A DNA stretch of 34,516 nt from a virus: the IMG/VR virus record IMGVR_UViG_3300030311_000011, positions 1 to 34,516 of that record; one strand, given 5' to 3'. A model generated the notes under the pieces. The model was not told the DNA's origin. It saw only the letters and a list, made by a program, of their open reading frames with translations, and searched no databases. The translations under genes and the position numbers were made by a program. Of the stretch, positions 15,429 through 27,480 are shown one piece after another (position 1 is the first letter of the stretch; each line of letters opens with the position of its first letter).

Positions 15429-15733
15429 TTGATGTCAACAAGGTTGAGGGTTTGCAGAGCTTCCGCGACGGGCGCGGGAAGTTCCGGGGTATCGGTTTTC
15501 ATGGAAAGGCTGATAATCAGCCCCCCGTCCAGTTCCGCACGGGTGCGAATGACCCGGACGGCCTTCTTGCCGGGCGTTGCCGGCGTTTGGTCGGGCGTGG
15601 ACGATGGTTTATCGTCGGATTCCCGGAGTTCATCCGGCGTTGCCGGCGTTTGATCCGGAGATTCCCCGGCTGATTCGGGTTCCGCCGGGACTTGCCTGGT
15701 GGCCTTCTTTTTGGTTGTTGCTCTTCTGCTCAT
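15425..15733 (-). CDS. hypothetical Pro/Thr/Asp-rich protein with internal PDQTPATP repeat
   Basis: 102 aa with an ATGA overlap at the upstream gene. The 17-nt repeat GGCGTTGCCGGCGTTTG occurs at 15573-15589 and 15636-15652 (63-nt offset). Confidence 0.5.
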   Translation of the reverse strand: MSRRATTKKKATRQVPAEPESAGESPDQTPATPDELRESDDKPSSTPDQTPATPGKKAVRVIRTRAELDGGLIISLSMKTDTPELPAPVAEALQTLNLVDIK

Positions 15734-16242
15734 TGGAATTGCGGGTTGTTTCTGATGTTAATATTGACCGGGACGCGGTAATCCACGGTCAAAACGTTCA
15801 TTTGCCGCTTCTCGCCGTCGATGACGGCGGAAGAGGAAAAACGGCCTTTGATTTTCGGTTTCATCATCGCAGGCGCGGCAAAGGTAAAAGGGTTCCAGTT
15901 CCACAGGGCTTCTTCAATTTCGTCGCCTACCGCCCGCAGGTAGTAGTCGGGCGTCAGGCATTCCGGGGGGAACAGGGCCGCGTTGTGGTAGACGGCGGCA
16001 ATGATGAAATACTGCCGCCACATGGTCGGCGCTTCCGTCTGCCCGTGCCCGTCCTGGTATTCGTCCGCATCTCCCGGACACACCAGCACCACGCCGTTGT
16101 TGCCCATCGCCGACATGATGATGTCATTGGCGGCGTACTGGGGGTCAAAGGGCCGCTCAAAGATATGGCAGTCCAATGTTCCGAGGCTCTGCAGGCGCTC
16201 AATGATGCGCCGGCACATGGTTTGGTCAAGGGAGGGGATCAT
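15730..16242 (-). CDS. neck/tail-joining protein, Mu gp37 (DUF1834)-like
   Basis: The tracked ORF 15730..16347 overlaps the upstream gene. The ATG at 16242 (MIPSLDQTMCRRIIERL...) forms an ATGA overlap with the upstream stop. Size (170 aa) and position fit gp37-like proteins. Confidence 0.4.
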   Translation of the reverse strand: MIPSLDQTMCRRIIERLQSLGTLDCHIFERPFDPQYAANDIIMSAMGNNGVVLVCPGDADEYQDGHGQTEAPTMWRQYFIIAAVYHNAALFPPECLTPDYYLRAVGDEIEEALWNWNPFTFAAPAMMKPKIKGRFSSSAVIDGEKRQMNVLTVDYRVPVNINIRNNPQFQ

Positions 16243-16904
16243 GATTCGTTTCCGATGTTGGCGAGGTAGGTTTCCGCGGCGCGCTGCGCCATCCGGTCCA
16301 GCGTCGGGAGGATCCCCAGCGTGGGCGGGATCGTGACTTCGCGGCAAAGCACGTAGAGGACGTCCCCGGTTTTGGCTCCTTTGCGGAACAGCTTCCGGGC
16401 CGCTTTCTTTCCGGTGGACGACTGCGCCGTCTTGAGGATGAGGACGCCGGTCACATTGCCGTTGCGTCCTCCGTTTTTGGAGGGAATGAATTGCAAATCG
16501 TCTTTGCGGAATCCGGCGCTGTAAATGCTCCGGGCCCCTCCATGCCCGCGCGGGGCGTTGATGGTGGGAATCGCGAGGTTTTGGATCGGCTGCCCCGTGA
16601 TTTCCGAGGTGCGCCCCGTGGGCCGGAGCGGGCCGCCCAGATAGCCCTGCGTGCCGAGCCAGTGCAGGCCGATACCGCGCCAGGCAATGGAGACGCTGAC
16701 GCCCTCGGCGGTTTCTTCCATGGAGGTGGCATCCGCCGCGCCGTCGTAGTAGTCCTTGCCCTGCTGGCGCAGGGTTTCCTGAATGAGCAGGCTGAGGGCG
16801 ACGCCCGCTTTGCGGATGGCTGTTTTGTGCCGGGACGCAGACGGCTCCATCTCGGCAAACGCCCGGTCAATCGCGGTCTGGTCGATATGGACGGTTACAG
16901 CCAT
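16239..16904 (-). CDS. virion morphogenesis/neck protein (Mu gpG / HK97 gp10-like, tentative)
   Basis: An internal ATG at 16904 (MAVTVHIDQTAIDRAF...) gives 221 aa and a 10-nt overlap with the upstream gene. The family call is weak. Confidence 0.35.
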   Translation of the reverse strand: MAVTVHIDQTAIDRAFAEMEPSASRHKTAIRKAGVALSLLIQETLRQQGKDYYDGAADATSMEETAEGVSVSIAWRGIGLHWLGTQGYLGGPLRPTGRTSEITGQPIQNLAIPTINAPRGHGGARSIYSAGFRKDDLQFIPSKNGGRNGNVTGVLILKTAQSSTGKKAARKLFRKGAKTGDVLYVLCREVTIPPTLGILPTLDRMAQRAAETYLANIGNES

Positions 16905-18031
16905 TTGACGGGCAAAACATAAGGGGTTGGCAGTTCCACGTGGAGAGCTCCGGCGACGTCTTCCACTTTCCTGACGTGCCCGGAGGTAAGGCGCCATGTG
17001 AATTCCCCCTCTTCCTTCCGGGAGACGGGGATGAACTGGCGGGACGATGCGGCAGCCACATCCGCGGGCCGGGCGAACCAGACGTCTTCCGGCTCGGAGA
17101 ACAGGCGGTCCAGCAGGCGGTCCAGGTAGAGGGATGCCAGCGTTCCGGCCACCGCTCCCCCGGCTGCCGCCAGGCGGAAGGCCTGGGCCTGGCGCAAGGG
17201 GATCTCTTCCGGGAAATCCCCTGACAGAAGTTCCGCCAGTTCCGCGTCCATGTAAGGCCGTGTGCCGTTCGGGTCGGTATAGACAAAGGTGGTATTGCCG
17301 TCGTTTTCGTTGTTGACGCGCAGGGCGTCTTTCAGGATGCTGCGGATCTTCTTCTTGTTGGCTTCCGTCACGCCCTGGGCATTGCTTTCCAGCGTGGCGT
17401 TGAAGCTGGCCGGAGCGGGACGGACGCGGGAAACCTCAAGACCTGCGGCACGGGCCTCGTCTGCGCTTATGGGGGCAATGTTCATCCCTGAAAGATAGTC
17501 GAATGGGGGATAAGGCGTCCCAAACCTCGAAAGCCGTATCCATATATCGGAGCAAGTCAACGCATAGCCGACAATATCCCCCCGGATGAACCCGGAGGAT
17601 ACCGCCTCCGTGGCTTCTTCTTCCAGCCCCGCTCTGGCCCGGTTCCAGCGTTCGGCCCAATAGCGGGGATCTTCCCTGCCTTGGGAGCGGTAAAATTTGA
17701 AGGCGGCCGTGTCTTCATCCTGTGTCCAGTTGTACCAGTTCCGGTATCCGTGGGCCATGGCCGCGTTGGTTTCCATCACGACCTGGATGCGGACCCAGGA
17801 GGACAAATCCTGAATGCCTCCCTGACCCGTCGCCGGGGGACGGTAGCCCTGCTGGCGCAGGGTTTCGCGGATGGCCTGCTGCGCTTCCTCGTAGCTCAAG
17901 GCGCCGGATGCGACTTTCGCGGCCTTGTCCTCGAAATCGGACAGGATAACGCCGGGTTCCACGCCGGACACGAAAAAAGCGCGCTCGGCGTAGTCGTTGG
18001 CGATCATCTCTCTCTGGGCGGCAGTCATCAT
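16895..18031 (-). CDS. minor head protein, Mu gpF / SPP1 gp7-like (tentative)
   Basis: The ATG at 18031 (MMTAAQREMIAN...) forms an ATGA overlap with the upstream stop, giving 378 aa. SWVRIQVVMETNAAMAHGYRNWYNW resembles the gpF-family core. Confidence 0.4.
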   Translation of the reverse strand: MMTAAQREMIANDYAERAFFVSGVEPGVILSDFEDKAAKVASGALSYEEAQQAIRETLRQQGYRPPATGQGGIQDLSSWVRIQVVMETNAAMAHGYRNWYNWTQDEDTAAFKFYRSQGREDPRYWAERWNRARAGLEEEATEAVSSGFIRGDIVGYALTCSDIWIRLSRFGTPYPPFDYLSGMNIAPISADEARAAGLEVSRVRPAPASFNATLESNAQGVTEANKKKIRSILKDALRVNNENDGNTTFVYTDPNGTRPYMDAELAELLSGDFPEEIPLRQAQAFRLAAAGGAVAGTLASLYLDRLLDRLFSEPEDVWFARPADVAAASSRQFIPVSRKEEGEFTWRLTSGHVRKVEDVAGALHVELPTPYVLPVKWL

Positions 18032-26016: not shown

Positions 26017-27006
26017 TCAAAAAAGCGTCAGTTGGGGGTTGTAGTTCGTGAATCGTTCGAGTAAAACCCGGAATGCAGTTGCCGCCACTGCAGGAACTTG
26101 CCCGTTGCCAATGGCTTTAAGTCGGTCCACTCTAGCGGCCACCCCATGAGCCACTCGACCCACGTCGGGTTCAGCTGACCACCACTCCCCGCAGTCATTT
26201 GTTTCCGCTCGTCCGGCGTGATAATTCCCTTGGCTTCCAGGGCTTTCATTTTCTGAAAAGCCCCACTTCCTCCGCACATGCCTTTTGTTCTTGGGGTAGG
26301 AAATCTGCTGGCTATAGTTCCCAAATTCGGGGACTTCCGATTGCCCTGGCTGGAGCCGCTGTCCTTCCAATCCCGTGAGGTTGGAGTCGGGAATTTTGCA
26401 ATCTGGTCGTTCAGGTTCCGGCTTCGGGCTGGGTCTTCCCATCTTCTGGCTTCTCCCGTCCTGAAATCCCTGGCTTGCGGGGTTGCAAATTTCATGGCCA
26501 GCCCCAGCGGCGGATTTGACAGCAAGTATCCACATGCGCTTTCTCTCATGCGGGGCGCCCACGTCGTCCGCTCCCAGCACCATCCATTCCGCATCGTACC
26601 CGATCGCGGCCAAGTCTCCAAGAACACATCCAAGCCCGCGAGAAGTGAGCATTGGGGAGTTCTCCACAAAGACATATTGAGGTCGTACCTCGCCAACAAT
26701 CCGGTGCATTTCCCGCCAGAGGCCGGAGCGGGCGCCGTCAATGCCGGCGCCTTTTCCTGCGGCTGAAATGTCCTGGCACGGGAAGCCTCCAGATACCACG
26801 TCAACAAGGCCGCGCCACGGTCGTCCGTCAAAGGTGCGTACGTCATCCCAAACCGGGAAAGGCGGGAGTAAGCCGTCATTTTGTCGGGCGAGCAGTACGC
26901 TTGCGGGATAGGGTTCAAGTTCGACAGCGCAAACGGTGCGGAATCCGAGCAGCTCGCTTCCAAGTATGCCTCCACCAGCGCCCGCGAAAAGAGCCAGCTC
27001 ATTCAC
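26017..27006 (-). CDS. dcm: DNA (cytosine-5)-methyltransferase (orphan phage Dcm)
   Basis: Ordered motifs are LFAGAGGG (I), GGFPCQDIS (IV), FVENSP (VI), HERKRMWILA (VIII) and AIGNGQVP (X). The ORF is open to ATG 27042, but GTG 27006 sits behind GGAGG and overlaps the upstream stop as GTGA. Confidence 0.85.
   Translation of the reverse strand: MNELALFAGAGGGILGSELLGFRTVCAVELEPYPASVLLARQNDGLLPPFPVWDDVRTFDGRPWRGLVDVVSGGFPCQDISAAGKGAGIDGARSGLWREMHRIVGEVRPQYVFVENSPMLTSRGLGCVLGDLAAIGYDAEWMVLGADDVGAPHERKRMWILAVKSAAGAGHEICNPASQGFQDGRSQKMGRPSPKPEPERPDCKIPDSNLTGLEGQRLQPGQSEVPEFGNYSQQISYPKNKRHVRRKWGFSENESPGSQGNYHAGRAETNDCGEWWSAEPDVGRVAHGVAARVDRLKAIGNGQVPAVAATAFRVLLERFTNYNPQLTLF
26028..27002 (-). other. 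full-length same-strand alternative-frame ORF (+1) superimposed on dcm; coding status unresolved
   Basis: 324 codons. The ATG lies directly after the upstream TGA (TGAATG). It contains three F-[AP]-T-P units and an LNPTWVEWLMGWPLEWTDLKP tail. See findings. Confidence 0.3.
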
Positions 27007-27344
27007 TCCCCCTCCTTTCTCGGCTCCCAGTAAACAGGCCATCCTTCATGGACGCAGGCTGCGCAGAACTTGTACTGCATTAGCTCATGTTTACAGTTCG
27101 AGCATCTCCTTCGCATAGGATGCACCCACACCCGGCACGCGGCCCGCTTCTGGCGGACGGTATGGATTTTCCCGGCAAGGTCCGTTGCCATTCTTAAGAT
27201 CCTTTTTTCAGAGGGCATCAAAAGGTAATATGGCTCTCCAAATTCATGAATGGCGTGTTGCCGGATTTTCTGAATGGTTTCCCTGACGGACTCCACGGAT
27301 TTTCCGCATTCGTAAAACGCTTTCTGTTCAGGCGTCATTTTCAT
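27003..27344 (-). CDS. hypothetical Cys-rich (zinc-finger-like) protein
   Basis: An internal ATG at 27344 (MKMTPEQKAFYECGKS...) gives 113 aa. The C-terminus reads CSNCKHELMQYKFCAAC. Confidence 0.5.
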   Translation of the reverse strand: MKMTPEQKAFYECGKSVESVRETIQKIRQHAIHEFGEPYYLLMPSEKRILRMATDLAGKIHTVRQKRAACRVWVHPMRRRCSNCKHELMQYKFCAACVHEGWPVYWEPRKEGE

Positions 27345-27480
27345 TTTCTTCCTTTCTTTGTAAAAGAACGACATTAACCGCTTGAAGAAGCCCTTTAACT
27401 TTACCAATCAAATAAAGGTAATACCCATACGCGGCGACGGTGGCTAAAAAAACTATAAGTTGCGCAATATCAAATATCAT
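27328..27480 (-). CDS. small single-TM protein
   Basis: 50 aa from ATG 27480 (MIFDIAQLIVFLATVAAYGYYLYLIG...), preceded by AGGAGGAAGCA. It lies below the ORF-track length cutoff when started at this ATG. Confidence 0.4.
   Translation of the reverse strand: MIFDIAQLIVFLATVAAYGYYLYLIGKVKGLLQAVNVVLLQRKEENENDA

Follow-up and report, generated by a model that had tools for sequence, protein, structure and literature searches.

We analysed a 34.5-kb viral contig (IMG/VR record IMGVR_UViG_3300030311_000011, positions 1 to 34,516; 56% G+C content (GC)), taken whole and referred to below as the window, and describe a gene in its early/replication module that carries DNA (cytosine-5) methyltransferase (C5-methyltransferase) motifs and is open in two reading frames of the same strand. 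The nearest relatives of the contig are Akkermansia prophages. Coordinates are those of the window, and all features located below lie on its minus strand. The frame A open reading frame (ORF), whose product we call alpha, spans 26017..27006 and encodes 329 amino acids (aa) from a GTG at 27006 to a TGA at 26019..26017; as listed from an upstream ATG it spans 26017..27042 and encodes 341 aa. The frame B ORF, whose product we call beta, is shifted +1 relative to frame A and spans 26028..27002, encoding 324 aa from an ATG at 27002..27000 to a TGA at 26030..26028. Each frame is stop-free over about 325 codons. The original prediction, made from this DNA alone, had described B as a stop-free +1 frame of 324 codons with 14 Trp residues, had quoted motifs in both frames and had noted that the same nucleotides read QLNPTWVEWLMGWPLEWT in B and EPDVGRVAHGVAARVD in A; all of this is confirmed, on the minus strand.

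Architecture of the dual-frame locus

The two frames begin at paired start codons in the string GTGAATG (27000..27006; AAAGGAGGGGGAGTGAATGAGC in the window), in which the A GTG (27006..27004) overlaps the TGA of an upstream ORF (27005..27003) and the B ATG follows this TGA directly. The two starts share a Shine–Dalgarno sequence, GGAGG (27011..27015), which is located upstream at a distance of 4 nucleotides (nt) from the A GTG and 8 nt from the B ATG. The upstream ORF (27003..27407, 134 aa; Cys-rich near its C-terminus, CSNCKHELMQYKFCAAC) is in the same frame as B; with its TGA lying across the A start and immediately next to the B start, termination–reinitiation coupling is possible. These coupled starts are as originally described, with two amendments: comparison across the family makes the GTG at 27006..27004 a likelier A start than the ATG at 27042, and 'ATG 27002', which had been put forward as a site for mutation, exists but is the B start itself rather than a separate site. 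Among 149 related loci, the B start is ATG in 133 and GTG in 8, and the A start 4 nt upstream of it is ATG in 63, GTG in 40 and TTG in 18, A otherwise beginning further upstream; the family consensus of the start region is NTGAATGAG[CT]TGG. A purine-rich Shine–Dalgarno-like 4-mer lies at most 15 nt upstream of the A start in 118 of the 149 loci. A start of the form ATGAATGAG is common to Acinetobacter phage ABMM1, a Manatee Spring phage and a Leptospira interrogans plasmid. The B-frame TGA preceding the B ATG is formed by the A start and the first base of Asn-2, and in 50 of 123 loci it also terminates an upstream ORF that is 40 or more codons long; the window is one such case, and L001 and L002 have the same stop/start arrangement. 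Coupling to a gene upstream is thus frequent, though not found in every locus.

Frame A contains the C5-methyltransferase motifs I (LFAGAGGG), IV (GGFPCQDIS), VI (FVENSP) and VIII (HERKRMWILA) in order, with the catalytic motifs PCQ, ENx and RxR intact. These motifs lie in a segment dominated by frame A (26512..27006), in which the same bases encode the N-domain of beta (aa 1-159). Motif X, LKAIGNGQVP (26092..26121), follows at the C-terminus of frame A, its residues G300, N301, Q303 and V304 being invariant in 27 sequences; here frame B reads part of DLKPLATGKFLQW, a 'shadow' tail. The PF00145 profile matches aa 17-179 of the 341-aa form (E 1e-30) over profile positions 5-165 of 324 only, hhalign aligns frame A with M.HhaI residues 12-176 (E 1e-15), and phrog_363 matches it over its full length (E 1e-69); with TIGR00675, the score of 79.8 is under the cutoff of 100.65. 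The predicted frame A model is weak overall, with a predicted local distance difference test score (pLDDT) of 49, and good only at aa ~100-170 and in the C-terminal helix (303-322, pLDDT 66-86); a Foldseek search with this model finds M.HaeIII, M.HhaI and DNMT1 as the best structure matches in the Protein Data Bank (PDB). The N-terminal 160 aa are extremely conserved across the family, and A 276-329 matches the A tail of mycobacteriophage Che9d (E 4e-9) and the tail of Arthrobacter phage Andrew gp44 (E 7e-5).

In C5-methyltransferases, the large domain is made up of motifs I–VIII together with X, the small domain of the target-recognition domain (TRD) and motif IX (PMC3404938). Neither a TRD nor motif IX was found in frame A: the profile matches end at aa ~165-180, and residues 166-275 are unconserved and predicted to be disordered (pLDDT ~25, without secondary structure). 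This middle part varies from 50 to 200 aa across the family, being only ~50 aa long in L002, shows no alignable conservation, and has no detectable similarity between subfamilies. The middle of frame A is an unconserved linker that is merely kept open, and alpha is best read as the large domain of a C5-methyltransferase.

Frame B has a composition biased towards W, S, R, P and T and consists of an N-domain, a variable number of modules of the form h-P-T-P-x-x-x-D, here called PTP modules, and a block LNPxWVEWLMGWPxxWT. The modules are gained and lost as whole units among homologues. In the window they read FATPQARDFRTGE, FPTPTSRDWKDSG and FPTPRTKGMCGGSG and lie in a segment dominated by frame B (26178..26525), a candidate target-recognition region; the block, which resembles motif IX, reads QLNPTWVEWLMGWPLEWT (26124..26177) and is read by frame A as EPDVGRVAHGVAARVD (26125..26172). 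The database searches proposed for the two translations returned PF00145 and phrog_363 for A, as given above, and for B more than 6,395 homologues in a collection of 5.8 billion proteins as well as phrog_1008, annotated 'DNA methyltransferase' (E 4.6e-23); the C-terminal half of B alone finds 9,226 clusters at 50% identity (E <= 1e-3). Residues 61-165 of B are 38% identical to the corresponding frame of Che9d gp80 (E 1e-15), and the B matches in Che9d, Andrew gp44 and Paenibacillus plasmids range from E 1e-8 to 1e-15. For Che9d, Leptospira and Acinetobacter, the similarity of the B N-domain is higher than in any of the 200 synonymous-shuffle controls (z 3.0-4.1); for Andrew gp43 and Paenibacillus, it is weaker and stays under the largest shuffle (z 2.3-2.4). 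The B N-domain is conserved beyond what A imposes.

B-type chains also occur in other contexts. In the protein P0062 (466 aa), such a chain has a C-terminal fusion to a PF13649 (Methyltransf_25) domain bearing a DPPH-like motif, suggesting that a second, different methyltransferase gene may follow beta and be joined to it in some phages. Directly downstream of the dual-coded gene of Paenibacillus bovis lies a stand-alone 133-aa 'mini-beta' ORF (L167, 3060..3461) with WPTP and INPAWIECMMGFPEGWT, and similar short B-like proteins are present in databases (P0340 and P0309).

Within the window, the gene holds the longest same-strand double-open stretch, at 324 codons, followed by stretches of 229, 208 and 199 codons. 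The original prediction had held that no other gene keeps a second same-strand frame open beyond about 200 codons except a collagen repeat; the first rank stands. The 208-codon stretch, the second-longest on the minus strand, lies at 15733..17435 among structural-gene ORFs, where the stop-to-stop span 15733..16866 overlaps the span 16242..17435; the translations listed for its ORFs showed no collagen-like repeat. As for the surroundings of the dual-frame gene, a gene for a PDDEXK/DUF2800 nuclease lies upstream, and a replication-organiser-like ORF, an IstB/DnaC-like ORF, the terminase and a Mu-like portal gene lie downstream.

Conservation of and selection on the two frames

The two frames were followed in a viral sample of 80 contigs retrieved via an alignment of B (B identity 38-56%) and in a genome sample of 80 loci retrieved via an alignment of A, with one genome per GTDB species. 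Both frames are stop-free over 240-410 codons in 78 of the 80 viral loci, and B is open over its full length in 76 of the 80 GTDB loci, which have a GC of 0.47-0.69 and come from phyla that include Verrucomicrobiota, Pseudomonadota, Planctomycetota, Patescibacteria, Chloroflexota and Acidobacteriota. The third frame of the same strand is open for only 6-125 codons. B is open also in genes at GC 0.47-0.51, and both frames are open in Acinetobacter phage ABMM1 (A 304 aa, B 298 aa), a Manatee Spring phage (A 246 aa, B 240 aa) and the Leptospira interrogans plasmid (A 284 aa, B 262 aa). When codons are shuffled synonymously with protein A held constant, 3.2 stops are expected in the first 150 codons of B and 2.6 in the remainder; with protein B held constant instead, the expectation for A is 5.0 and 4.9 stops. 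In 75 distinct loci, none was seen in either frame. For the window alone, A-preserving shuffles leave B stop-free in ~4% of cases over the first 150 codons and in ~4% over the rest. The double-open state is not an artefact of GC or composition.

The codon positions of the two frames are linked, with the third position of A being the second of B and the third position of B the first of A, and differences per site between close pairs show which frame is constrained. Over the first ~130 codons, A is dominant, with values of 0.033 for B1 (=A2), 0.151 for B2 (=A3) and 0.058 for B3 (=A1). In the middle, B is dominant (B1 0.042, B2 0.031, B3 0.216), the third codon position of B being 5-7 times more variable than its first two, and B remains dominant in the NPxWVEWLMGWPxxWT block (B1 0.031, B2 0.039, B3 0.086). 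In the tail, dominance returns to A (B1 0.07, B2 0.192, B3 0.128), and A3 is the most variable position across B codons 299-313. Entropy profiles over 75 sequences yield the same map. At A 280-298, all four-fold-degenerate third positions are essentially invariant in 149 sequences (e.g. CCC, GTG, GCT, GGG, GCC and GTG), and in the catalytic half of A four further four-fold sites are near-invariant, namely R108 (CGA), V114 (GTG), A133 (GCC) and G136 (GGG), which fix D107, W113, P132 and G135 of B. The two comparative outcomes anticipated in the original prediction were thus borne out: B stays open in diverse homologues beyond the expectation from codon shuffling, and synonymous sites of A are suppressed where B is conserved.

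Purifying selection alternates between frames A and B along the gene. Because selection at the block is dominated by B, the 'RVAxGVAxRVD' motif of the A family is a shadow of the motif IX-like block of B; conversely, because the tail is dominated by A, the 'DLKPLxxxKFxxW' motif of the B family is a shadow of motif X of A.

A reading of the locus in which B is a non-coding shadow, its openness a product of codon bias and high GC and its annotation an error of gene finders, could appeal to the amino acid bias of B, to the variability of its second codon position in the first 150 codons and to the 56% GC of the window, but we give it almost no credence, as it is refuted by the comparative data: B is open at low GC and in the Acinetobacter and Leptospira elements, its start ATG is conserved, ~6 stops are expected by shuffling and 0 observed, its third position is by far the most variable in the middle third, four-fold sites of A are invariant exactly where B is conserved, and, at 38-56% B identity, the loci are not near-identical copies.

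A proposed two-chain methyltransferase and its alternatives

Nearly all characterised C5-methyltransferases are monomers, with M.AquI and M.EcoHK31I as the cited exceptions (PMC3404938). M.EcoHK31I (from E. coli HK31, recognising YGGCCR; Lee, Kam & Shaw 1995) consists of two polypeptides (PMC2836561, PMC3404938). In the summary of PMC2836561, its beta chain is encoded in an alternative frame within the alpha gene and activity needs both chains, alpha holding motifs I–VIII, motif X and the presumed TRD and beta holding motif IX.

Altogether, we consider it likely that the locus in the window is one dual-coding gene for a two-chain C5-methyltransferase of a temperate Akkermansia-type phage. In our model, ribosomes would start at two codons 4 nt apart behind one Shine–Dalgarno sequence and may also reinitiate after the TGA of the upstream gene. 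Alpha would contribute the S-adenosylmethionine-binding and catalytic motifs I–VIII, a disordered spacer of ~110 residues and motif X as parts of the large domain, while beta would contribute its N-domain, two to several PTP modules and the motif IX-like block as parts of the small domain, with the PTP modules possibly acting in target recognition. The two chains would assemble non-covalently on DNA into the active enzyme, as has been demonstrated experimentally for M.EcoHK31I. We infer that B is translated, that a heterodimer forms, that both chains are needed and that the PTP modules have a recognition role. From its sequence, the beta block LNPxWVEWLMGWPxxWT is likely to be motif IX, and beta probably supplies the recognition region, with the PTP modules as the candidate TRD.

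Natural variants of the gene bear on how the two chains are related. In Arthrobacter phage Andrew (L004), gp43 is an A chain with motifs I–VIII only, and the overlapping gp44 is a B-like chain in which PTP modules, EWMMGQPAGW and LKACGNGVV share a single frame; the two proteins are each annotated as DNA methyltransferase. Similarly, in L073 and L080, A stops after the linker and the B chain continues into motif X, and in these two loci and Andrew no more than ~110 codons separate motif VIII from the end of the A chain. In P0243, too, one B-type chain holds both the motif IX block and motif X. In Che9d gp80 (L003) and two Paenibacillus plasmids (L166 and L167), B is nested inside a longer A. 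Motif X is able to sit on either chain in natural variants, which is expected if the two chains assemble into one enzyme and is hard to explain otherwise. Pfam gave no match for B-like chains that also bear motif X, and Pfam scans of the longest B-like representatives for single-frame ancestors found PF00145 only in P0347, an apparent frame hybrid.

In a further allele, common in Akkermansia prophages (L172, 1497..2340, also L173; protein P0111; 83 indexed blocks), the frame changes in mid-gene and three ORFs result, namely an A chain of 204 aa with motifs I–VIII, a 279-aa chain consisting of the B N-domain and an A-type tail with motif X, and, in the third frame, a 75-aa ORF with one module and NPVWCEWFMGWPEGWT. 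Judged from its sequence, this allele could be either an active three-chain enzyme or a decaying gene. Swapping of tails between chains, which hybrids such as P0111 had suggested, was dropped as unproven, since the L172 DNA shows a frame change with motif IX on the separate 75-aa ORF.

Several observations weigh against the two-chain model. Frame B has no match in Pfam, NCBIfam or PADLOC, and neither the B profile nor Andrew gp44 found any PDB sequence at E <= 10. AlphaFold2 modelling of B alone from an 88-sequence alignment was uninformative (mean pLDDT 43, predicted template modelling score 0.20). The alignment of QLNPTWVEWLMGWPLEWT with M.HhaI motif IX (KLHPRECARVMGYPDSYK, 273-290) was the top local match in three comparisons but was non-significant in all of them (E 0.29 profile–sequence, 0.12 profile–profile and 3.3 BLASTP); the canonical M.HhaI profile, built from relatives at least 71% identical only, was too narrow to help. 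The second codon position of B varies freely in the first ~150 codons, so that a large part of the beta N-terminus may only be maintained as an open frame and not conserved. The sampled loci share ancestry, and the seeds of both samples were peptide patterns specific to the family. Lastly, a few loci have a stop in one frame (L101-L102, L136, L143, L168 and L172), suggesting that some copies decay or work differently.

Three of these loci, from unrelated genomes, have one frame-A stop 10-20 codons after motif VIII (L102 ~2540, L136 ~2513 and L143 ~2513), with the remainder of frame A, including motif X, open and B intact; read-through, a split alpha or recent decay are possible. In E. coli, copies were detectable in 4 of 5,426 complete genomes, all in prophages, and the one inspected (L168, 1501..2281; PCP07014 prophage) has stops in both frames within ~10 nt and is labelled by PGAP as a pseudogene with an 'internal stop'.

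Two alternatives in which B is coding have to be weighed against the two-chain model. Of these, the better survivor, which we nevertheless regard as unlikely, is that B is translated as an independent overprinted protein, such as an anti-defence factor or a DNA-binding regulator, with alpha alone being a minimal methyltransferase. The lack of a significant match of B to any methyltransferase profile, the failure of B alone to fold confidently and the small stand-alone B-like ORFs described above (L167 3060..3461, P0340 and P0309) would all fit an independent function. However, such a function would leave alpha without any conserved region where the TRD and motif IX belong, whereas the most conserved block of B has M.HhaI motif IX as its best local match. 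Moreover, B-type chains also bear motif X in several variants, and in the loci examined B always occurs with an overlapping or adjacent N-domain of a C5-methyltransferase. M.EcoHK31I, as summarised in the sources cited above, provides a precedent for reading B as a subunit.

Less probable still is that a single polypeptide is made by two programmed frameshifts, from A to B after motif VIII and from B back to A before motif X, the additional open stretches being incidental. Such a double shift would rebuild the canonical order of motifs I–VIII, TRD, IX and X, which the A–B–A mosaic of selection matches exactly, and it would tolerate the A-frame stop just after motif VIII in L102, L136 and L143. 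Against this, B is open from its own conserved ATG for ~150 codons upstream of the putative shift site, where ~3.2 stops are expected and 0 occur in 75 loci, and A is open through the ~110-codon linker, where ~4.9 are expected and again 0 occur in the 75 loci. The geometry is not one of partial overlap, since the starts are paired, the ends are nearly common and B has its own conserved ATG. In addition, there are variants with motif X on the B chain in which a single frame is nonetheless not restored, and the precedent studied by experiment, M.EcoHK31I, makes two separate chains.

Comparison with known systems and significance

As in the published description of M.EcoHK31I, the window has a second ORF in an alternative frame of a methyltransferase gene; in the window family, this ORF is conserved and under purifying selection. 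It differs in several respects. Unlike in M.EcoHK31I, beta of the window begins 4 nt downstream of the alpha start and covers the same stretch (324 versus 329 aa) rather than being nested, and it has an N-domain of ~160 aa that overlaps the catalytic domain. Also unlike in M.EcoHK31I, the selected region between motifs VIII and X lies in beta, and the 'TRD region' of alpha is an unconserved linker; this combination suggests that the TRD is probably on beta rather than alpha. The window enzyme is an orphan in a phage replication module instead of part of a restriction–modification pair, and its gene family has a very wide distribution. The nested forms in Che9d gp80 and the two Paenibacillus plasmids are closer to the M.EcoHK31I geometry. 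M.AquI (Agmenellum quadruplicatum, CYCGRG; PMC3404938) is, similarly, a two-chain C5-methyltransferase, and its division into an alpha chain with motifs I–VIII and a second chain with the recognition region and motifs IX and X is matched by the variants Andrew gp43/gp44, L073 and L080. In the window, by contrast, motif X is on alpha and the ORFs overlap completely instead of being consecutive. With respect to the monomeric methyltransferases M.HhaI and M.HaeIII (PF00145/TIGR00675), the N-terminal 165 aa of alpha and its C-terminal helix match the large domain, but alpha has no TRD or motif IX in the same chain.

The gene also resembles classical overprinted genes, such as those of phiX174, in being a same-strand overlap in which the adaptive conflict appears as alternating dominance of the frames (reviewed in PMC8227390). 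Unlike overlaps of the phiX174 type, the overlap of ~975 nt lies in a 34.5-kb double-stranded DNA phage without obvious need for compression, and the proteins it encodes look like two halves of one enzyme, not unrelated products. The principle is already known from M.EcoHK31I; new here are the complete overlap, the paired starts, the likely location of the TRD on beta and the wide distribution. A literature search of partial coverage found no paper describing such breadth, and searches with motif strings were without result.

The gene caller applied to the window contig called frame B, for which an identical database protein exists, and omitted the catalytic frame A, and in the NCBI records for relatives (L169-L171) A is the sole frame annotated. 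In PHROGs, the frames fall into two families, phrog_363 representing A and phrog_1008 representing B together with an A-type tail. The original prediction had suggested that one annotated family may be the overprinted frame of the other, and this pair of families, each with a tail motif that is partly the shadow of the other, bears it out. Single-frame calls make methylome predictions, inferences of specificity and counts of 'hypothetical proteins' systematically wrong for phages with the dual-frame family. If our model is correct, the target-recognition modules are on a chain that annotation usually omits or labels 'hypothetical', and several 'conserved motifs' of each annotated family are reading-frame shadows of the other.

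Claims of long gene overlaps in bacteria and phages are disputed, and most of them come from ribosome profiling (Ribo-seq) of lineage-restricted ORFs. The comparative evidence here is unusually clean, with ~150 distinct sequences from many phyla, both frames open and selection that switches frame along the gene. Beyond the window, we lean modestly towards the view that, in a very large family of C5-methyltransferases that spans phyla and occurs in phages and prophages, full co-extensive dual coding over ~250-400 codons, from two start codons 4 nt apart, is the usual condition, and that these enzymes are obligate alpha/beta heterodimers. Heterodimeric C5-methyltransferases would then be common, as opposed to the two exceptions cited in 2012 (PMC3404938), and the gene pair would rank with the longest and most firmly supported same-strand gene overlaps among prokaryotes. 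Natural split methyltransferases serve as templates for targeted-methylation tools (PMC2836561). Two-chain C5 enzymes may be widespread in mobile elements rather than curiosities, and their specificity may reside in a modular, easily reshuffled chain.

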